DNA of 12,401 nucleotides from Archangium sp. (lineage in GTDB: Bacteria > Myxococcota > Myxococcia > Myxococcales > Myxococcaceae). The stretch covers positions 1 to 12,401 of the forward strand of contig JANLPS010000216.1 of NCBI GenBank assembly GCA_031367385.1, read 5' to 3'. Shown here piece by piece: positions 893 through 11,374 of the stretch (position 1 is its first letter; each line of letters starts with the position of its first letter). Made by a program: the position numbers and the translations under genes. The notes under the pieces were generated by a model. The model saw only the letters and a program-made list of their open reading frames with translations, was not told where the DNA came from and made no database searches.

Positions 893-2563
893 CTACCGCC
901 CGGTCACATTCAACGCGCCGCCCGTCAGAGAAAACACCCGCCCCTGCCGGTCGATCGCCACCGGCGTGTACGCAGCAGCCCAGGTCGCGTGCAGCACCCG
1001 GGAGTCACGCAGCGAGCCATCGGGCTTGATCGCGTAGAGCGAGCCATCTTCATTGTTCGCGTACGCCACGCCCTTCGAATCGATCGCGACAGAATTCACG
1101 CACCACTCGAACCCATTCTGATTTTTCTCCGACGTGCTCTTGTTGTGAAACCCGCTCTCGACGGTGAGCTCGGGTGAAAGCCTCGTGATCGCAAAGGGCC
1201 CGTTGCCGCTCGAGTCGCGCAGCCCGTAGTGGTTGTCTTTGAGCACGATGGAGTACGTGCCGTCATGACTCACCACCGCCGGAGTCACGTCCCACCCGAA
1301 GTCGTACGTGCCGAGCACTTCACCGCTCGAGCCGAAGTGAAAGAGGTGGCCCCGCGCCTCATTGTAAAGCGTCTCAGCGCCATAGAGCACCGTGCCATCG
1401 GGCAACACCACCGGGCTCGAGGTCGCATCGTCATCAGCCGCACCCGCCGGCAACTGGTTTGTCCACGGGTCGACGCCCTTGGTCGAGCCGATGCAGCAGT
1501 GGCCTCGAGTCGGTTTCCCACCGTCAGGAGCGGGGCATTGGGCATCATCGGGCACCCGTTCACCGCACCCGTCGGCCAGCTGGCCGCGAAGCGACGTGGC
1601 CCACTTCACCTTGAGGTCTGGCGTCAACGCGACGACCCACGCATACAGCGGCGAGTCATCGGTTCGGCTGACGGTGAAGATCGTGCCGTCGGGCCCAATC
1701 GCCGGAGCCACGTTGAAAGGAGCTCGCTGTCGCCCGCACGAAGTGGTGGGCGTGGGCCGAACACCTCCGTCGGCGTACAGCGCGGGGATGGGCCCAGTGT
1801 AGAAATGCACGCACAAGTCGTCGGCTCCGGGCGCTTGCGCAACCATGGAGTCGTACGGCACCGAGCTCACCTCGCCCGACCCGCTCACACGCACGAGGTG
1901 GGCGGTCGGAGCGCTCGAGTCGTAGACCAAGACGTTGAAAAAGACCGAGCCCGTCGAATCGATGGTCAGGGGGCCGGTGACGAACCGTTCGGCGCGCTCG
2001 TCTCCGGGCAGCGATGGCGTGATCTTCGCCAACATCGTGCCGGAGCGCCGATCGACTTTGAAGATCGAGCCATTGCTCCCGGGCACATAGAGAAAATCGC
2101 CGAACACCGCCGGGTGAAAAAGGGCCTCCCACTTCGTCAAGAACAGGGGCACCGGCTTCCAGTCGCTCTCGAAGCGCCAGGCTTTCGCGAGCGTGCCATT
2201 CGACCAGACCAGGTGCGTCTCACCCCACGTCACCTCAGCCCAGGCACCGAACCCGCAGTCACCTTGCGTCGTGTCGTCGCATTCGGGCTGCGTGCCGATC
2301 TTCTCCAGCATGTAGATGTCGTCGCCGACCAGCAGCGGCGATTGGTAGTGCACCGGCAAGTACCCCAATTGCCGCGCGACCTGCCCGGCAAAGGGGTCTG
2401 CGGTGAAAGAACCCAATTCACGGTTGAGTGGTTGCCCCTCGACACAGCCCTGCTGACTGGTGTGGCTCGAGTCGCGCCCCGATTGCGACCAGTCGCAGAG
2501 GGGGTTGGAGGCTGTCGTGCACGCCGCGAGAAACACCGTCATTGCGACAGGCGAGGTCTTCAC
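893..2563 (-). CDS. Putative lipoprotein with beta-propeller-like (PQQ/BamB-like) repeats, function unknown
   Basis: 556-aa ORF with N-terminal lipobox VFLAAC and recurring blade-like motifs (PLLVGDDIYM, PAVFGDFLYV, PAIGPDGTIFT, SSPVVLPDGTVLYG, VAIDSKGVAYA..DGSLYAIKPDG, PVAIDRQGRVFS). Several Cys clusters. Start uncertain (GTG 2563). Confidence 0.75.
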   Translation of the reverse strand: MKTSPVAMTVFLAACTTASNPLCDWSQSGRDSSHTSQQGCVEGQPLNRELGSFTADPFAGQVARQLGYLPVHYQSPLLVGDDIYMLEKIGTQPECDDTTQGDCGFGAWAEVTWGETHLVWSNGTLAKAWRFESDWKPVPLFLTKWEALFHPAVFGDFLYVPGSNGSIFKVDRRSGTMLAKITPSLPGDERAERFVTGPLTIDSTGSVFFNVLVYDSSAPTAHLVRVSGSGEVSSVPYDSMVAQAPGADDLCVHFYTGPIPALYADGGVRPTPTTSCGRQRAPFNVAPAIGPDGTIFTVSRTDDSPLYAWVVALTPDLKVKWATSLRGQLADGCGERVPDDAQCPAPDGGKPTRGHCCIGSTKGVDPWTNQLPAGAADDDATSSPVVLPDGTVLYGAETLYNEARGHLFHFGSSGEVLGTYDFGWDVTPAVVSHDGTYSIVLKDNHYGLRDSSGNGPFAITRLSPELTVESGFHNKSTSEKNQNGFEWCVNSVAIDSKGVAYANNEDGSLYAIKPDGSLRDSRVLHATWAAAYTPVAIDRQGRVFSLTGGALNVTGR

Positions 2564-2607: not shown

Positions 2608-4152
2608 TCAGATCACCGGCGGCCGACGCAGCTGCGTGCCCTGCTCGTAGGCATACCCGAGCCGGAGCAGCGTGCCTTCGCTCCAGGGCCCGGCGAAGAA
2701 CAGCAACCCCACCGGCAGGCCCTGCACCTCACCCATCGGCACCGTCAGTGACGGGTACCCCGCCACCGCAGCGATCGAGTACGACGACGCCCCGCCCACG
2801 TCTCCGTAAACCGGGTCAATCAGCCACGCGGGGTCCATCGTCGGAGCGATGATCGCGTCGAGCCGGTGCTTCTTCATCACCGCATCGATGCCCTTGCCCC
2901 GCGACAGCGTGCGGCAGGTCTCCAGCGCCTGCTTGTAGGCCTGACCGCTCAGCGGCCCCTTCGCCTGGGCCTGCTCGAAGAGCTCTTGACCGAACTGCGG
3001 CAGCTCGCGCTCAGCGTTCTTCGCATTGAAGGCGATGACGTCGGCCAGCGTCTTCACTGCCGCCCCGGGCCGTCGTGACGCCAGGTACGAGGCCATGCCC
3101 GCCTTCAGCTCGGTCAGCAGCACCTCGACCTCAGGCTTGTTCAGCGCCTCGACCGGCAGCTCGATCGGGTCGACCAGCACCGCTCCCAGCCGCTTCAAGT
3201 CGGCCCGCGCCGCATCGAGCAGCCGCACGACTCCAGGCATCGCGCTCATCAGCTTCACCGCGATACCGATGCGCGCACCCTTGAGCCCGTCGCGATCGAG
3301 AAACCGGGCGTAGTCTTTCTCGGCCTTGCGGCTCGCCACGCGCGTCGCCGCGTCTTCGGCGTCGTCACCCACCATCGCACCCAACAGCAGCGCGGCATCT
3401 TCGACCGTTCGAGTCATCGGGCCCGGCGTGTCTTGGCTGGCGGAGATGGGAATGATGCCGCTGCGGCTCAGCAACCCCACCGTCGGCTTGAGCCCCACCA
3501 AGCCCTGCGCCGAGGCCGGAGCCACGATCGACCCATCGGTCTCGGTGCCCACGGCCGCCGCGCACAGATCAGCCGCCACCGCGATGCCAGACCCCGAGCT
3601 CGAACCCAACGGGCTGCGCTCGAGCGCATAGGGGTTGCGACCCTGCCCGCCTCGCGCGCTCCAACCCGAGGTCGAACGGGTCGACCGAATGTTCGCCCAC
3701 TCCGACAAGTTGCTCTTGGCCAGCACCACCGCGCCCGCCGCTCGCAGCGCCGCCACGACGAACGCGTCTCTGGGCGCCTTCGACCCGAGCAGCGCCAGCG
3801 AGCCCGCCGTGGTCTCCATCTGATCGCCAGTGTCGAGGTTGTCTTTCACCACCACGGGGATGCCGTGCATCGGGCCCCGCACTTTCTTCTCTGCCCGCTC
3901 GCGATCGAGCCCATCGGCGATGCTCAACGCCTCGGGGTTCACCTCGAGAATCGCGTTTAGCTTCGGGTTCAACGCGGTGATTCGCGACAAGTACGCTTCG
4001 CACAACGCCCGAGAGGTCGTCTTGCCGCTCGCCATCGCCTCGCCCAGCGCCCGCAGGGTCGCGTTCTTGAACCCGAGCTCGGCCGACCACCCCACGCTCG
4101 GTATCAACGCCGCGGCCACTGACCACTGCAGCACCGAGCGCCGCGCGATCAT
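2608..4152 (-). CDS. Amidase-signature family enzyme with predicted Tat signal peptide
   Basis: Motifs HGIPVVVKDN (catalytic Lys), GSSSGS (cis-Ser region) and GTETDGS (nucleophile Ser), plus GLKPTVG and QDTPGPM. Start moved from 4188 to ATG 4152, which overlaps the upstream stop (ATGA) and gives MIARRSVLQWSVAAALIPSVGWSA. Confidence 0.92.
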   Translation of the reverse strand: MIARRSVLQWSVAAALIPSVGWSAELGFKNATLRALGEAMASGKTTSRALCEAYLSRITALNPKLNAILEVNPEALSIADGLDRERAEKKVRGPMHGIPVVVKDNLDTGDQMETTAGSLALLGSKAPRDAFVVAALRAAGAVVLAKSNLSEWANIRSTRSTSGWSARGGQGRNPYALERSPLGSSSGSGIAVAADLCAAAVGTETDGSIVAPASAQGLVGLKPTVGLLSRSGIIPISASQDTPGPMTRTVEDAALLLGAMVGDDAEDAATRVASRKAEKDYARFLDRDGLKGARIGIAVKLMSAMPGVVRLLDAARADLKRLGAVLVDPIELPVEALNKPEVEVLLTELKAGMASYLASRRPGAAVKTLADVIAFNAKNAERELPQFGQELFEQAQAKGPLSGQAYKQALETCRTLSRGKGIDAVMKKHRLDAIIAPTMDPAWLIDPVYGDVGGASSYSIAAVAGYPSLTVPMGEVQGLPVGLLFFAGPWSEGTLLRLGYAYEQGTQLRRPPVI

Positions 4153-5003
4153 CGCTTGACCACGCAGTACCCGCTCTTCTGATCGCACACGGTGTTGGCG
4201 AAGCAGGTGAACCCGGGGTTGTCACAGCGCGGTATGCAGATGCCGCTGCCGAATGACGCGGGGCTGGCCTCGCAGTTGTACCCGGGCCGACAGGTCGACT
4301 GGCCCTGCCTCGGCGCCCGGCAGCTCGCAAGGCACAGGTTGGAGCCCCCATCGGCCCCGCCGGTGTTCACGCACTGCGAGGCCTCGGGGCACGAGTTGGG
4401 GCCCTTGCACGCCGCCGTGCAGTACCCGCCCGGCCACCCGGTCGACATCATCAAGACCGACTCGGGTATGCAGAGCCCGTTGTTCGGAGGCTGGCACTGC
4501 CCGTCGAACAGGCATGGCGACCCGATGCCACCGTCGAGCGGGGGCTTCATGTCGGGCACGCACCCGGCTGGGCTGCAGACCTCGCCCGAGCCACACGCCG
4601 CGCACACCTGCCCCTTGGCGCCACAGACGAAGTTCGTCTGCGCTTGGGCGTCGAGGCAGAAGCTGCCCACGCAACAGCCATTGCAGGCGCCGGGGCCGCA
4701 CACCATCGGGCCGCCGCCACCGCCAGCGCCACCGCCAGCGCCCCCGCCGGTCGGCTTACCGCCGCCCCCTCCCCCAGACCCGCCGCCAGAACCCCCTCCC
4801 GGGCCTCCCCCTTTGCCTCCCGCGATGCCGCCGCCGGTACCCCCGCCGATTCCTCCCCCACCACCTGTGGCGCCGCCGCCGCCCGAGCCGCCGTCACGGA
4901 TACCGCCGCCGCCCTCGAACCCGCCGTCAGACAGCCGCTCTTCAACGGCTTGAAAACAACTGGTGACGGCGATCGCGGCGATGAGCAGGGCAAGGCGCTT
5001 CAT
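4149..5003 (-). CDS. Gly-rich/Cys-rich lipoprotein, function unknown
   Basis: MKRLALLIAAIAVTSC lipoprotein signal, GGAG 5 nt upstream of the ATG, a long poly-Gly linker, then Cys-rich modules (CNGCC, CAAC, WPGGYCTAAC, CRPGYNC). Confidence 0.82.
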   Translation of the reverse strand: MKRLALLIAAIAVTSCFQAVEERLSDGGFEGGGGIRDGGSGGGGATGGGGGIGGGTGGGIAGGKGGGPGGGSGGGSGGGGGGKPTGGGAGGGAGGGGGPMVCGPGACNGCCVGSFCLDAQAQTNFVCGAKGQVCAACGSGEVCSPAGCVPDMKPPLDGGIGSPCLFDGQCQPPNNGLCIPESVLMMSTGWPGGYCTAACKGPNSCPEASQCVNTGGADGGSNLCLASCRAPRQGQSTCRPGYNCEASPASFGSGICIPRCDNPGFTCFANTVCDQKSGYCVVKR

Positions 5004-5132: not shown

Positions 5133-5525
5133 ATGTCCAAAATCTCCGACACCCCCTCGGCCCGCACCTTCACCAAAGCATTGATGAAAGAGTTCGCTCC
5201 CGAAGCCCGTGAAGCGGCCGGCGACGACGCGATTCTCACCCGCGCAGAGGCGAAGACCATGATTGGCGTCGGAGGCTCGACCGCCCTGGTTGACCTCGCC
5301 GTCAGCTTCTTCGACCGCAAGGGCTGCGACTCGGCCCCCCTGAGCGAAGTGCTCAACGACGTCGACATGTTCGTTCAGCGCCGCGTGGCCAAAGAGGCCG
5401 TCAGCATCGCTGGCAGCACCACCGACAAGATTCTGTCGGCGGCCGATGCCCAACGTCTGCCCAAAGAAATCAAGGGCGCGTATGACTACCTGAAGAGCCT
5501 GCCGGGCACGCCTTCAGCCGACTGA
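5133..5525 (+). CDS. Hypothetical protein (130 aa) with two degenerate EF-hand-like repeats
   Basis: ORF with GC-rich third positions filling the gap before fusA. Internal repeat AAGDDAILTRAEAKTM / IAGSTTDKILSAADAQRL. Confidence 0.7.
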   Translation: MSKISDTPSARTFTKALMKEFAPEAREAAGDDAILTRAEAKTMIGVGGSTALVDLAVSFFDRKGCDSAPLSEVLNDVDMFVQRRVAKEAVSIAGSTTDKILSAADAQRLPKEIKGAYDYLKSLPGTPSAD

Positions 5526-5587
5526 TTGCGCACCCTTCGCCATAGCGCTTGTCTTTGGCCGCGCAGTTCAGTACTCGCGGCGGCGCT

Positions 5588-7723
5588 ATGGCTAACATTC
5601 CTCTCGACCGCATTCGCAACATCGGCATCTCTGCCCACATCGATTCGGGCAAGACCACTCTGACCGAACGCATTCTCTTCTACACGGGTCGCATTCACGC
5701 GATTCACGAGGTGCGCGGCAAAGACGAAGTCGGCGCCACGATGGACTCGATGGACCTCGAGCGCGAGAAGGGCATCACCATTCAGTCTGCCGCCACCTAC
5801 TGTGTGTGGCCGGGCTCGAAGAAGCAGTTCGAAGACTTCAACATCAACATCATCGACACCCCTGGGCACGTCGACTTCACCATCGAGGTCGAGCGGGCCT
5901 TGCGCGTGCTCGACGGCGCCATCTTGGTGCTCGACTCAGGCAAGGGCGTTCAGTCGCAGTCGATCACGGTCGACAAGCAGATGAAGCGCTACAGCGTGCC
6001 CCGCATCGCCTACGTCAACAAGATGGACAACCCGGGCGCGAACTACGACCGCGTCGCCGAGATGCTCAAAGAGAAGCTCGGCCACCGGCCGGTCAAGCTC
6101 CAGGTGCCGATTGGCGCCGAAGAGAAGTTCGAGGGCGTGATCGACGCCATCACCGGCAAGGCCTACTTCTTCGACGGCGAGAACGGCGAGAACATTCGCG
6201 AAGAGGCGATACCCGCTGACTACGTCGAGAAGACCAAGGCCGCTCGCATCGAGCTCATCGCCCGTGTCGCCGACCACGACGACATGTTGGCCGAGAAGTT
6301 CATCAACGAAGAGCCGGTGAGCGACGACGAGCTGCGCGCCGCCATTCGCCGCGCGACCCTGGCCCTCAAAGTGACCCCGGTCATGTGTGGCTCGGCCTAC
6401 CGCAACAAGGGCGTTCAGCTCTTGCTCGACGGCGTGGTGCACTACCTGCCCAACCCGATGCAGGTCACCAACCAGGCCCACGACCAGAACAAGGGCGAAG
6501 AGAAGGTCGTTCTCGACTCTGACCCGAAGAAGCCTTTCGTCGGCCTCGCGTTCAAGCTGCTGCAAGACAAGTACGGCCAGCTGACCTTCTTCCGCATCTA
6601 CCAGGGCACGGTTGCGACCGGCGACACCATCGTCAACACGAGCAACCAGTCGCGCAAGGTTCGCGTGTCGCGCATGTTCCGCATGCACTCCGACAAGCGC
6701 GAAGAAATCACCTCGGCGCAGGCCGGTGACATCGTCGCGATGACCGGCGTCGAGGCCTCGTCGGGCGAGACCTTCACCGACGGCAAGGTCAACTACACCT
6801 TGACGTCGATGTTCATCCCCGCGGCCGTGATCTCGCTGTCGGTGGCACCCAAAGACCGCGTGAACGAGATCAACTTCTCGAAGGCATTGAACCGCTTCAC
6901 CAAAGAAGACCCCACCTTCCGCGTGCGCCAAGACGAAGAGTCGGCGCAGACCATCATCAGCGGCATGGGCGAGCTCCACCTCGAGATTTACATGGAGCGC
7001 ATGAAGCGCGAGTACAACTGCGAGGTCGTCTCGGGCAAGCCTCAGGTCGCCTACCGCGAGACCATCACCCAGCGCGGTGAGTTCGCCTACACCCACAAGA
7101 AGCAGACCGGCGGCTCGGGCCAGTTCGCCCGCGTCTGCGGCTACCTCGAGCCCCTGCCGGTCGACTCGGTCGAGGCGTACGAGTTCGTCGACGACATCGT
7201 GGGCGGCTCGATTCCCCGCGAGTTCATCCCCGCGTGCGACAAGGGCTTCCGTGAGGCGGTCAAGAAGGGCGCGCTGATCGGCTTCCCCGTCGTGGGCGTT
7301 CGCTGCCTCATCAACGACGGCCAGTCACACGACGTCGACTCGTCTGAGCAGGCGTTCAAGACCGCCGCCATCATGGGCTTTCGTGAAGGGTACGCGGCTG
7401 CCAAGCCCACCATTCTCGAGCCGATCATGAAGGTCGAAGTCGAAGCGCCGATCGAGTTTCAGGGCTCGGTCGTCGGCCAGGTCAACCAGCGCCGCGGCGT
7501 CATTCTCGAGACCACCTCGGATGAAGGCAACGTGGTCGTGTTGGCCGAAGTGCCCTTGAACATGATGTTCGGGTACTCGACCGACCTGCGCTCGGCGACC
7601 CAGGGCAAGGGCAACTTCACGATGGAGTTCGCCAAGTACATGGCGGTGCCCCGCGGAGAGCAGGAAGAAATGGTCAAGAAGCACCGCGAGAAGATGGCGC
7701 TCGAGCAGGCTGCCCGAAAATAA
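5588..7723 (+). CDS. fusA: Elongation factor G (spdEFG1/mtEFG1-like subtype), outside the str operon
   Basis: [15 protein letters not shown] (G1), [15 protein letters not shown] (G3), NKMD (G4), [42 protein letters not shown]. Start taken as ATG 5588 ([11 protein letters not shown], 711 aa) rather than 5549. Confidence 0.98.
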
Positions 7724-7738
7724 CCGTTCGTCCTGAGC
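7724..7738. repeat. Left half of the REP-like repeat disrupted by IS110 (CCGTTCGTCCT-GAGC)
   Basis: Begins at the first base after the fusA TAA. Identical to 863-877. Confidence 0.9.
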
Positions 7739-7840
7739 AGGGGGACCGGCTTGGCGCCGGTTATTTCCGGTGAAGGAACAGATTTTCTGCGGACCGAGTA
7801 GACCGACGCGCGCGTGAGAGCAGCCGAGACCGCCGTCGCA

Positions 7841-7991
7841 ATGGTGCAGAGTTCGATGCCCGATCCTGAGCCTGGTTCTGGAGGCTGTGACTATTTCATT
7901 GGTGAAGGCGGTGAGCGGATTGGGTCCGCTCACCGCTTATCCCGTTTAGGAGACTGCTTAACTTCGTCCCCTCTGGGCTTTCACGCACCAT
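7841..7991 (+). ncRNA. Candidate IS110 bridge RNA core (target-binding loop, central hairpin, donor-binding loop)
   Basis: TCCTGAGC at 7864-7871 equals target-left plus core (7731-7738). TTAGGAG at 7946-7952 equals donor-left plus core (9361-9367). 12-bp perfect stem 7908-7919/7925-7936. Closing helix ATGGTGC 7841-7847 / GCACCAT 7985-7991. Transcript ends are unknown. Confidence 0.75.
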
Positions 7992-8017
7992 CCAAAGTGC
8001 GAAACGAGAGCTAGCGA

Positions 8018-9364
8018 ATGATGAATGAAAAGTCGAAGAAAACCAGGGTAGGCCTGGCGAGTTTGAATCCAAAGGCGGCAGGAATCGACCTTGGGTCCAA
8101 GACGCATTGGGTTGCGATTCCACCGGGCAGCGCAGACGAGACGGTCCGTTCGTTTGATTGCTTCACGACCGACCTCGAGAAGATGGCGAGTTGGCTTCGC
8201 GAGCACGGAATCACTACCGTCGCGATGGAGTCGACCGGCGTGTACTGGATTCCGGTTTTCGAAATGTTGGCGACTCGCGGCTTCGACGTGCAGCTTGTCA
8301 GCACGAAACACCTCAAGGGCGTGCCGGGCAGAAAGACCGACGTGCTCGACTGCCAGTGGATTCAACATCTGCACGAATGCGGCTTGCTGCGTGGCTCGTT
8401 TCGACCGGAAGACGCCATTTGTGTCGTGCGTGGCTATGTCCGTCATCGAGACACGCTGACGGAAGAGGCATCGAAGTACCTTCTGCGCATGCAGAAGTCG
8501 CTCGACCAGATGAACATCCATCTGCACAAGGTGCTCAGCGACCTCACTGGTAAGACAGGCATGGCCATCCTCGACGCGATTCTTGCGGGTGAGCGCGACG
8601 CAATGAAGTTGGCAGAGCTTCGCGACTACAGATGTCGCACACCCGAAAGCATCATCATCAAGGCTTTGTCGGGCAACTTCAGAGAAGAGCATCTGTTTTG
8701 CCTGCGGCAAAACCTCGACGCGTACCGTTTCGTGCAAGCGCAAATCGACGTCTGCAACTCAGAGATTCTCGTGCGGATGAAAGCCTTTCAGAACAAAGCG
8801 GGCGAGCTCACTCCGCCACCGCCGAAGAATAAGCGAGACAATGGCGAGGTGCGGCTCGCACTCTTTCGCGCCGCCGGCGCCGATTTGTCGCTCATCCCTG
8901 GGCTCGGCTCGAAGAATTTGCAGACGCTCTTCGCTGAAGTCGGCTTCGACCTTCAAAAATTTCCGAGCGAAAAGGCCTTCGCGGCCTGGGCTTCGCTCGC
9001 ACCCAAAAACAACATCACCGGTGGGAAGCAACGCCGAGGTCCGCGCACGACTTCTTCGACCAGTCGTGTCGCTCAAGCCTTTCGCATAGCCGCCCAAACA
9101 CTCGCCAATAGCCGCTCTGCCCTCGGCGCCTTCTATCGACGCATGCGTGGCCGCAAAGGCCCCACCTTCGCCAATGCAGTCACCGCTCACAAAATCGCGA
9201 AGCTCTTCTATCGAATGATGAAGCACGGCGACCAGTACAAGGACCCAGGCGTCGACTTCTACGAGCAAAGGTACAAGGCACAGCGCAAAACCTCAGCGCT
9301 CAAGACACTCGCAAGCCTCGGTTTTCACGCCACCCTGCGGGAGATTCCGAGCACTGTTCCTTAG
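8018..9364 (+). CDS. IS110-family transposase/recombinase (RuvC-like DEDD domain plus C-terminal Tnp domain)
   Basis: GID24LG, AME71STGVYW and KTD108VLD111 form an intact DEDD tetrad. The C-terminal domain has IPGLG...FPSEKAFAAWASLAP...ITGGK...AHKIAKLFYRMM. GAGAG at 8006-8010 is a possible RBS. No frameshifts or internal stops. Confidence 0.97.
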   Translation: MMNEKSKKTRVGLASLNPKAAGIDLGSKTHWVAIPPGSADETVRSFDCFTTDLEKMASWLREHGITTVAMESTGVYWIPVFEMLATRGFDVQLVSTKHLKGVPGRKTDVLDCQWIQHLHECGLLRGSFRPEDAICVVRGYVRHRDTLTEEASKYLLRMQKSLDQMNIHLHKVLSDLTGKTGMAILDAILAGERDAMKLAELRDYRCRTPESIIIKALSGNFREEHLFCLRQNLDAYRFVQAQIDVCNSEILVRMKAFQNKAGELTPPPPKNKRDNGEVRLALFRAAGADLSLIPGLGSKNLQTLFAEVGFDLQKFPSEKAFAAWASLAPKNNITGGKQRRGPRTTSSTSRVAQAFRIAAQTLANSRSALGAFYRRMRGRKGPTFANAVTAHKIAKLFYRMMKHGDQYKDPGVDFYEQRYKAQRKTSALKTLASLGFHATLREIPSTVP

Positions 9365-9381
9365 GAGCGAAGTCGAAGGAC
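9365..9381. repeat. Right half of the disrupted REP-like repeat (GAGC-GAAGTCGAAGGAC)
   Basis: 9365-9376 is identical to 874-885. AGGAC (9377-9381) is the reverse complement of GTCCT (7730-7734) and closes the palindrome of the empty site. Confidence 0.9.
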
Positions 9382-9390
9382 CCGCTCCCC

Positions 9391-9427
9391 AACCCTCTCT
9401 CCTTCACTGGGGAGGGGGTTTTCTTTT
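9391..9427 (+). terminator. Probable intrinsic terminator (originally for fusA)
   Basis: AACCCTCTCTCC-TTCACT-GGGGAGGGGGTT forms a 12-bp stem (2 G:U pairs) followed by TTCTTTT. Confidence 0.75.
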
Positions 9428-9475
9428 GAAGAATCAATGCAGCACTTTCGGGCCGGCCCTCTCATCAAGGCACCT

Positions 9476-11374
9476 ATGCGATTTCAGCTGATTGTGACCT
9501 TTGCGATGCTGCTGGCAGCGGGCTGCTTTCAAGGAGCGACCGAGTTCAAGTGCGACCCGGTGACCGGGCAAGACTGCGACGGCACCCGCGATGGAGGCAA
9601 GACCGGGTCGCCTGACGGCGCGGTGATGGGTGACGCAGGAGCGCTGGCGGGCGACGCCGGCACCTCGGGAGGCGACGCCGGCACCTCGGGAGGCGACGCA
9701 GGCACTGTGGAGTGCGTCGACAAGTACGACTGCCCCTTCAAGGCCGACAGCCTCATCACGTGCATCGAAAACCGGTGCGTGTACACGCACGACGACGCGG
9801 GCGCCCCTCCGTCGCACCTGAACGATGGCGGCGCTGTCACCCGCCGCGATGCCGGCAGCGTGCAGCCCAACCCCCAGGCCGAGCTGGCGGTCGACCGCCT
9901 CGAGGTGACCTTCGGCCGCGAGTTCGGCAGCGCCACCTGGCTGGGCACCGCACCCCAGGAGACCCTGCTGCTCACCAACATCGGGCTCACCGCCCTGACC
10001 ATCACCTCGGCGACGGTTCAAGGCGCCGACGCCGCGGCCTTCACCCTGAGCCGGCCCACGCTGACCCCCTCTCTGGCGCTGTATGAGCAGACCTTCATTC
10101 GGGTCATTTTCACGCCCACGGCGGGGCGCTCGTACGCCGCGACGCTCACCATCGCCTCAGACGGAGTCAACCCATCGATCACCGTGCCGCTGACCGGCCG
10201 TGGCATCGCACCGGCGTCTCCCGCGAGCCACGGCTTGTACGACAACCCCGAGTGCCTGGGGTCTGACCGCTGCTTCACGCCCGTCGAGACCGGTGGAGGC
10301 TGCGGCAGCAACTCGGCCGTCTGGGTCGGGTACCTCGAAGATCGCTCCCTGGCCTACCGCGACGATGCCGACGGCGACGGCGCGGCCGATGACGTCGACA
10401 ACTGCCCGTACGCGAGCAACCGAGATCAACTCGACGCCGACGGTGATGGCGTCGGCAACAGCTGCGACAACTGCGCGGCGGCGAGCAACATTCTTCAAGC
10501 TGACCTCGATGGCGATGGCGCGGGCGACCTCTGCGACGCCGACCTCGATGGTGACGGCATCGCCAACGCGGTCGACAACTGCCCTTCTCTGCCGAACCCG
10601 AGCCAGGCCGACCTCGACAACGACGCCGCGGGAAACCGCTGCGACGCCGACGCCGATGGCGATGGGTTTCCAAACGTCTCCGACGTCTGCCCGCTTCTCG
10701 CTCACACGCCGAACGAGGTCGTGCTCGACAACAACGGCATGGTGCACCCCCAGTGCAACCCCGACGTTGACGGCGACGGCGTCGGAGATGCCACTGACAA
10801 TTGCCCCGACGTGGCAAACACGAATCAGCTCGACACCGACGGAGATGTGCTCGGCGACGTCTGCGACCGCGACATCGACGGCGATGGCGTTCTTAACCTG
10901 GCCGACAACTGCTCGAAGGTGGCCAACCGAGACCAGCGTGACGATGACGGCGATGGCATCGGCGACGCCTGCGACGCGAAGTATTGCTTCGTCGTCGACC
11001 CCTCGAACCGCGCAGACTGCCTCGACCCCCAGGGGCCCTTTCGAGTGCACAGCGGCGGCAGCTTTTCGCTGCGCACCGGCGAGTCGGTTCGGTTGCCCTT
11101 CTTCGCCAATCGCAATGGCGCGGGCATCACGTTCATCTGGACGATCAGCAAGCGCCCGGCTGCCAGCCTCGCCGCGGTCGACCAGCCCACTGGCTCGGTG
11201 GTGCTGAGCAGGCACTTCACCTACGCGTACCCAGACCGGCAGGTGCCGTTCTTCACGCCCGACGTCGCCGGCGACTACACACTGCAGCTGCAATCAACGC
11301 TCACCATTGCCGACCGGGTGTACCCTGATCAGAAGCAATCGGTCTCAGCGATGATCATCCACGCCACGCCCTGA
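9476..11374 (+). CDS. Lipoprotein with Ig-like (ASH/choice-of-anchor D-like) domain and thrombospondin type 3 Ca-binding repeats, MtsC-like C-terminal part
   Basis: Start taken as ATG 9476 (AAGG upstream, MRFQLIVTFAMLLAAGC lipobox). LLLTNIG..LTIT...F...VIFTP....Y.ATLTI.SD....VPLTGRG is Ig-like. Many DxDGDGxGDxCDNCP/NxDQxD repeats. The MtsC resemblance is from memory, not from a search. Confidence 0.88.
   Translation: MRFQLIVTFAMLLAAGCFQGATEFKCDPVTGQDCDGTRDGGKTGSPDGAVMGDAGALAGDAGTSGGDAGTSGGDAGTVECVDKYDCPFKADSLITCIENRCVYTHDDAGAPPSHLNDGGAVTRRDAGSVQPNPQAELAVDRLEVTFGREFGSATWLGTAPQETLLLTNIGLTALTITSATVQGADAAAFTLSRPTLTPSLALYEQTFIRVIFTPTAGRSYAATLTIASDGVNPSITVPLTGRGIAPASPASHGLYDNPECLGSDRCFTPVETGGGCGSNSAVWVGYLEDRSLAYRDDADGDGAADDVDNCPYASNRDQLDADGDGVGNSCDNCAAASNILQADLDGDGAGDLCDADLDGDGIANAVDNCPSLPNPSQADLDNDAAGNRCDADADGDGFPNVSDVCPLLAHTPNEVVLDNNGMVHPQCNPDVDGDGVGDATDNCPDVANTNQLDTDGDVLGDVCDRDIDGDGVLNLADNCSKVANRDQRDDDGDGIGDACDAKYCFVVDPSNRADCLDPQGPFRVHSGGSFSLRTGESVRLPFFANRNGAGITFIWTISKRPAASLAAVDQPTGSVVLSRHFTYAYPDRQVPFFTPDVAGDYTLQLQSTLTIADRVYPDQKQSVSAMIIHATP
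9629..9705 (+). repeat. In-frame 21-bp tandem repeat (GDAGTSG), about 3.7 units
   Basis: GGCGACGCCGGCACCTCGGGA is exact at 9650-9670 and 9671-9691, degenerate at 9629-9649 and partial at 9692-9705. Confidence 0.9.

Follow-up and report, generated by a model that had tools for sequence, protein, structure and literature searches.

We identified an intact insertion sequence of the IS110 family, of the ISPpu9/ISWpi13 type, at positions 7738-9367 of the window, by which we mean the whole 12,401-nucleotide stretch of the Archangium sp. contig that was analysed. The element appears to encode an RNA-guided IS110-family recombinase together with a two-loop bridge RNA in its left end, in which the guides would stand in mirror order to those of IS621. 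One of the four guides, the 5' guide of the donor loop, seems to copy an internal site of the left end, and the bottom strand of the joined ends may fold back so that this site comes to lie opposite the core. We regard this explanation as a whole (reversed-order bridge RNA, internal-site donor guide and folded-back strand) as probable, and the guide assignments within it, which were made from sequence comparison, as very probable. The features on which the argument draws are as follows.

7724-7737, + strand: left half of the REP-like target repeat, defined from empty genomic copies
7731-7735, + strand: left target, followed by the AG core at 7736-7737 (core deduced from homologues)
7738-9367, + strand: IS110-family element of the ISPpu9/ISWpi13 type; the coordinates include one AG core (9366-9367)
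7745-7761, no strand assigned: left-end DNA hairpin, centred near the axis of the sub-terminal inverted repeats
7761-7767, - strand: putative internal site, its bottom strand complementary to the 5' donor-loop guide at 6/7 positions
7773-7781, + strand: left copy of the sub-terminal inverted repeat, lying 35 nt inward from the left junction
7812-7986, + strand: bridge RNA, extent predicted from covariation and a constrained fold
7812-7821 with 7977-7986, + strand: predicted closing stem, from covariation of 7815-7821 with 7977-7983
7833-7839, + strand: putative right target guide, 5' side of the target loop
7843-7861, + strand: predicted inner stem-loop of the target loop, helix 3 of the covariation fold
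7864-7870, + strand: putative left target guide on the 3' side of the target loop, 5 nt followed by AG
7871, + strand: handshake-like base, matching the first base of the element (7738)
7891-7897, + strand: putative 5' guide of the donor loop, a copy of the internal left-end site and not of sequence beside the core
7901-7943, + strand: predicted inner stem-loop of the donor loop, containing a long variable hairpin (7906-7938)
7946-7952, + strand: putative left donor guide, 3' side of the donor loop, matching 9361-9367
8018-9364, + strand: recombinase of 448 amino acids, with D24, E71, D108 and D111, and Thr334 at the catalytic serine position
Residues about 165-222 of the recombinase: long helical variable region in the predicted structure
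Residues 412-433 of the recombinase: C-terminal helix in the predicted structure
9354-9362, + strand: right copy of the sub-terminal inverted repeat, separated from the right end by 5 nt with the core counted in
9368-9383, + strand: right half of the target repeat, defined from empty genomic copies

The element is the only IS110 copy in the assembly, and it is inserted at an AG core within a REP-like repeat, directly 3' of the stop codon of an EF-G gene (5549-7723). Both junctions read as the preliminary description had claimed, at 7724-7738 and 9356-9378, and the empty target that it reconstructed is real, since its 27 bp occur as exact copies in four other contigs of the same genome. A 21-mer of this target has 5 exact genomic matches and 26 in total at up to three mismatches, and a 30-bp version has 28 matches at up to five mismatches. 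These exact empty sites point to site-specific insertion at a short core without further duplication, a trait of the IS110 family. In contigs of two sequencing runs from another study, the match to our sequence ends at 7724 and exactly at 9367, which fits other insertions of the element and a right end at 9367. In a related strain the end of the EF-G gene is joined to position 9391, with neither the repeat nor the element present, and a DNA-level search of 40 kin genomes returned mostly fusA matches and two partial matches to the element. No circle junction was found in the assembly or in the contigs of four DNA runs, contigs being a form of data that drops rare forms. None of the runs listed as containing the element is an RNA run. 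Comparison with the available text of PMC3733652 gave no named REP family for the target repeat.

Several further observations were made in the surroundings. A second, empty copy of the target repeat lies between two converging genes at 863-886, and a terminator-like hairpin with a T run (about 9385-9425) is located just past the repeat that holds the element. The segment 2608-4188 encodes an amidase and 9437-11374 a thrombospondin type 3 repeat protein; the ORFs at 893-2563 (- strand), 4149-5003 (- strand) and 5133-5525 (+ strand) are without a Pfam match. A 13-nt inverted repeat (92%) pairs 7714-7726, at the end of the EF-G gene, with 7758-7770, at the internal guide site; it probably arose by chance because the flank is host DNA. 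A scan for sigma-70-like promoters gave no site above 6/12, and a search of Rfam gave no match on the bridge RNA and two weak ones (E 2.1), both downstream of the element.

The 448-residue protein carries the two IS110 domains, PF01548 and PF02371 (DEDD RuvC-like and Transposase_20), and reaches 246 bits against a cut-off of 140 with NCBIfam NF033542. D24, E71, D108 and D111 are invariant among 169 aligned proteins, in which the catalytic serine position is occupied by Ser in 145, by Thr in 23 and by a gap in one; TG is a listed variant of the S(t)G motif in the available part of PMC11187229. The structure was predicted with a mean pLDDT of 91.6, and its best structural matches are the recombinases of IS621 and ISCro4, at 16-18% identity. 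The helical region at about 165-222 and the helix at 412-433 are absent from IS621 and are, in the predicted model, candidates for binding the inverted repeats or the hairpin; folded alone, the variable region gave a pLDDT of 54. The transposase stop codon (9362-9364) lies inside the sequence that the left donor guide would read.

Homologues with 42-57% identity were collected from genome and metagenome collections and from kin genomes. The initial 195 loci were reduced to 176 with a usable gene start, 133 distinct upstream regions and 120 with a related RNA, and from there to 91 with both junctions and 82 with a repeat matching at 7/8 or better. The structure alignment comprised 72 left ends, and plasmid and viral-collection loci served as a held-out set, in which 15/20 were resolvable and 5/20 were not. 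For multi-copy families, the element boundaries were taken from diverging flanks and were thus independent of the guides. The core, which had been suspected to lie within GAG, is the dinucleotide AG, with AG/AG in 114 of the 120 homologues and AA/AA in the other six.

In 120 of the 133 left ends the bridge RNA lies upstream of the transposase gene. Members of the same clade have it downstream (loci L112, L128, L132, L135, L137, L140, L150, L152, L153, L158, L174, L108 and L191-L195), so that the RNA appears to have moved between ends without a change of guide order. In an AA-core sub-clade (L182, L183, L187, L190, L197-L202, L205, L206 and L210-L212) the target guide is a run of A, the internal-site match is only partial, and the flanks look like the frameshift region of IS3-family elements. 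In six loci (L062, L196, L053, L054, L155 and L175) the target guide corresponds to the right end of an identical or related element, giving tandem or nested insertions. L203 holds two related elements in tandem whose guides differ; by eye, each shows a partial match to its internal site.

The window itself is enough for reading both left guides, as the preliminary description had put forward, with TCCTGAGC at 7864 and TTAGGAG at 7946. The two 7-mers occur in this order in 0.075% of 20,000 dinucleotide shuffles of the 228-nt left end. That description had also proposed a comparison of guides with targets and element ends across homologues, and this came out in favour of both guides: the left target guide matched its own left flank at 6.5/7 or better in 88 of 120 homologues (7.8 for foreign guides), and the left donor guide matched its own right end at that level in 105 of 120 (8.4 for foreign guides). 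The boundaries of the multi-copy families agree with these matches. Across the 120 homologues there are 75 distinct left target guides and 39 distinct left donor guides, and with 75 different target guides natural reprogramming is evident. The target match had been given as eight of eight bases; seven of these stand, while the eighth, C7871, agrees with the element's first base in 85 of 87 homologues (three independent pairs only) and matches the target base only at chance, 17%. At the handshake position the signal is clear in the target loop and weak in the donor loop, at 0.32 against 0.26.

The right target guide would act on the other side of the core. Its TCGC (7836-7839) is complementary to the top-strand core G and three target bases, and among 95 homologues the guide matched 3.33 of 6 positions compared with 2.20 for permuted pairs, in one register only and with a signal that fades beyond about 5 nt.

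The claim that the left end encodes a bridge RNA of an IS110-family recombinase, with a target loop followed by a donor loop, is supported by the guide matches and by a covariation fold, although the structure originally drawn for it is not. The stems CCGAT/ATTGG, CCT/AGG, CCCG/TGGG and AC/GT are present in the sequence, and most of them appear in one single-sequence fold; in the 72 aligned left ends they are paired in 53.8% of cells compared with 55.6% for shuffles. An alternative fold consists of a closing stem (7815-7821 with 7977-7983) and, for each of the two loops, an outer stem and an inner stem-loop. It is paired in 93.3% of cells, compared with 80.2% for shuffles, figures that lean its way as it was drawn by eye from the same 72-sequence alignment of kin. 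It shows two-sided changes in 20 of 24 pairs and drops sharply when slid, and it is its contrast with the earlier stems that matters. The alternative fold would put both left guides on the 3' side of their loops, and not on the 5' side where they had been placed. The RNA would begin near 7812, so that the extent first given, 7841-7991, had left out the closing stem and the right target guide. An architecture of the IS621 kind was thus abandoned on three grounds: its stems fail in covariation, the guides stand in the opposite order, and the fourth of them is no right donor guide of the IS621 type.

We scanned for this fourth guide over the whole junction region and both strands, with the register set from the repeats alone in 82 elements. 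The guide at 7891-7897 would be a same-sense copy of the 7-mer just before the left inverted repeat, in the register set by the repeats; in the window, 7761-7767 is its unique best match among 208 junction-region positions. The best match fell at the repeat-defined register in 59 of the 82 elements and at the canonical position in one (chance about 1.3%). With three registers allowed, as the register shifts by one base either way, the numbers are 63 of 80 AG-core elements and 0 of 80, respectively; the window element belongs to a rare register class (3/80). Identity to the internal site is 0.68-0.90 over seven positions and then falls to 0.29 and 0.22. The 82 elements hold 40 distinct hexamers at this guide, and when relatives with different guides were compared in 35 disjoint pairs, some of which may share branches, an element's own guide fitted better than its neighbour's in 31 (one worse, three ties). 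Column-wise tests on 3-7 independent pairs pointed in the same direction, none of the results listed reaching a median p of 0.05. The held-out loci gave weaker support: the best match was at the register in 3 of 4 elements with an AG core, in only 2 of 11 with an AA core, and never at the canonical position, with an AA-core mean of 4.3/7 at the register compared with 2.6 at the canonical one; a first pass, with several junctions mis-set, had given 6 of 24. Based on these comparisons, the sequence rule for the fourth guide is well supported in the AG-core majority.

Other placements were tried for the fourth guide. A canonical right donor guide, reading the top strand beside the core, gave 1.72/6 compared with 1.86 for permuted pairs, and positions 3' of the left donor guide or homologous to the canonical one were both rejected. 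In the accessible text of the IS110 literature, we found no description of a donor guide that copies an internal site. Deviant RNA structures are mentioned, with a figure, in the available text of 10.64898/2026.10.21.760802.

The sub-terminal inverted repeats agree at seven or eight of eight positions in 82 of the 91 homologues for which both ends are available, the left copy lying 29-40 nt into the element. Of 79 distinct ends, 66 have a hairpin whose centre is no more than 2.5 nt away from the repeat axis, compared with 16.5 in shuffled ones, and the 12 positions between repeat and hairpin are mostly mismatched in these ends. As a single strand, the window junction is predicted to take a folded shape (z -4.5 for the bottom strand and -3.9 for the top) that sets the internal site across from the core, at the place expected for the action of a right donor guide. 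The fourth guide is identical to the top strand and would pair with the bottom strand, so that both donor guides would share one strand, on which their sites are about 25 nt apart. For one loop to hold both, the joined ends would need a bottom strand that doubles back at the hairpin. In such a fold the inverted repeats would meet on one side and the hairpin would close the other; between them, a mismatched bubble of about 12 nt would contain the internal site, facing the core. The resulting pseudo-duplex would consist of the inverted-repeat stem, the bubble and the inner hairpin. We consider a folded-back bottom strand, in some form, likely.

The order of exchange may follow by analogy with IS621, in which cleavage begins with the strand that the 3' guides hold and the handshake bases come after these guides, as described in PMC11208158. 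In our element the 3' guide of each loop, 7 nt ending in the AG core, reads a bottom strand, that of the left target or that of the right end. Here the bottom strands would be exchanged first, and a base after the left target guide that tracks the donor is what a handshake base would do on the strand exchanged first. Among the 82 elements none has a junction at the internal site, so that perhaps only the bottom strands are exchanged and replication completes the event. A free single-stranded donor with one-strand exchange is accordingly offered as a tentative proposal, to which we give somewhat under an even chance. Single-strand excision or insertion has been reported for IS621 (10.64898/2026.08.31.748434) and for CazIS110-1 (10.1101/2025.10.25.684509), in the parts of those reports available. 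Two published results count against a folded strand: at one junction CazIS110-1 preferred a double-stranded donor about 20-fold (10.1101/2025.10.25.684509, available text), and an ISPpu9 mutant in the left-end hairpin gave correct minicircles by end-point PCR (PMC12288879, available text). In the same account of ISPpu9, deletion of the left box or changed bases after the AG left no correct minicircles.

The same four guides could serve a donor that stays double-stranded, with protein bound to both inverted repeats and the DNA looped or locally melted between them; the fourth guide would then be a separate anchor check, and exchange would be the usual two-strand one through a Holliday junction. 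The strand-bias test, which was negative for a folded bottom strand in both wobble pairs and folding energy, agrees with such a donor: wobble at the repeat edges favours the top strand (49 against 20, kin not being independent), and of 79 ends only 33 show better folding of the bottom strand, against 41. The repeat core is also perfectly Watson-Crick, which would suit symmetrical sites bound by protein, minicircles of ISPpu9 did not require the hairpin in the assay just cited, and the extra helical regions of the modelled recombinase could bind the repeats. A double-stranded donor nevertheless leaves unexplained why the hairpin is centred on the repeat axis (66/79) and why the internal site ends within one base opposite the core, and we think it unlikely.

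Two other readings fare worse. The internal match might not reflect DNA recognition at all, being a relic of duplication or part of an RNA switch in which identical segments compete; the match is partly decayed in the AA-core sub-clade, and ISPpu9 has antisense and 5'-UTR regulation according to the available text of PMC8450116. However, the match ends abruptly after 7 nt, which is also how long the other guides are, and changes in step between relatives, and a search for a switch partner found no perfect complement in the element's own left end in any of the 82, which together make a relic or switch very improbable. An ordinary bridge RNA of the IS621 type, with left guides on the 5' side and right guides on the 3' side beside the core, draws on the stems of the single-sequence fold and on the complementarity of 7966-7971 to 7741-7746 in the window element. 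Yet those stems pair no better than shuffles, 7966-7976 forms one arm of the donor-loop outer stem, and the canonical position was best for the fourth guide in none of 80 elements; we regard this reading as extremely unlikely. The reversed-order bridge RNA with an internal-site donor guide and a folded-back strand is the explanation that we carry into the comparison with known systems.

The closest structural relatives are IS621 and ISCro4 (PMC11208160, PMC11208158; PDB 8WT6, 8WT9, 9T56), as described in the available parts of those sources. By the predicted structure, the element shares with them the DEDD RuvC and Tnp fold; it also shares a left-end RNA in which the target loop precedes the donor loop, the order stem-guide-stem-loop-guide within each loop, a dinucleotide core, a handshake-like base and a REP target. 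It differs in the length of the recombinase (448 amino acids against about 326), in the core (AG against CT), in the left guides (7 nt against 8-9) and in the sub-terminal repeats (9 bp, or 8-9 in the clade, against 2-3 bp). The guide order is reversed, since in IS621 the 5' side pairs with the bottom strand and the 3' side with the top strand, and the fourth guide copies an internal site, whereas in IS621 and ISCro4 it reads the top strand beside the core.

With the IS1111 elements and their seekRNAs, as described in PMC11187229, the element has in common that the top-strand match precedes the bottom-strand match in the RNA, that the inverted repeats are sub-terminal, and that Thr is tolerated in the S(t)G motif. 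The guide order is thus that of the IS1111 seekRNA, and not that of IS621 or ISEc21 (PMC11187229, PMC11208160, available text). The IS1111 repeats, however, are 11-13 bp long and lie 7 and 3 bp from the ends, compared with 9 bp at 35 and 5 nt here; the IS1111 non-coding region is downstream, while the RNA here is upstream (downstream in a sub-clade); and the IS1111 transposase has 330-350 amino acids against 448.

ISPpu9, ISWpi13 and ISPsy35 form one cluster in Supplementary Table 1 of PMC11208160, as far as that table is available. The AG core, a left box with a hairpin, a short right box and a REP-type target were all found in our element and are traits of the ISPpu9/ISWpi13 clade. ISPpu9 of Pseudomonas putida (PMC12288879, PMC8450116, available text) likewise has an AG core and a REP target, with a 43-bp left box containing a hairpin and a 16-bp right box (PMC12288879). 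By eye, its printed box sequences show the same spacing of hairpin and inverted repeat as here, and the printed ISPpu9 and ISWpi13 proteins share the clade motifs. The available text of the two ISPpu9 papers (PMC12288879, PMC8450116) makes no guide assignment, leaves the hairpin unexplained and describes the group as having no inverted repeats.

Papers from 2025-2026, in so far as their text is available, disagree on whether the circles of IS110 elements consist of one strand or two, and on whether exchange involves a single strand or both. The clade would be a sharp test of the strand question, as it has a guide able to pair only with the strand of its partner guide, and a folded strand would explain the left-box hairpin of ISPpu9 in a tractable system. 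For genome editing, the clade may offer recombinases with an AG core and different design rules, and a design copied from IS621 would misplace three of the four guides. Potentially, the ISPpu9/ISWpi13 clade uses a folded single-strand donor that is exchanged alone into a double-stranded target at RNA-programmed sites, a proposal that we put forward with some reserve and hold at a little below an even chance.

A single folded DNA strand is the recombination substrate at the attC sites of integrons and at the ends of IS200/IS605 elements. The enzymes of these systems differ from the recombinase of our element, and strand bias is typical of their sites; the attC-like preferential folding of one strand was not seen here in the strand-bias test. 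We know of no RNA guide for the folded site in either system. In conclusion, if the proposal for the clade is true, the donor would be used as integrons use attC, but at sites programmed by RNA. Bridge RNAs as such have been known since 2024; what is new here is that the guides are reversed in an RNA lying upstream, that the left repeat is displaced and that a donor guide copies an internal site.
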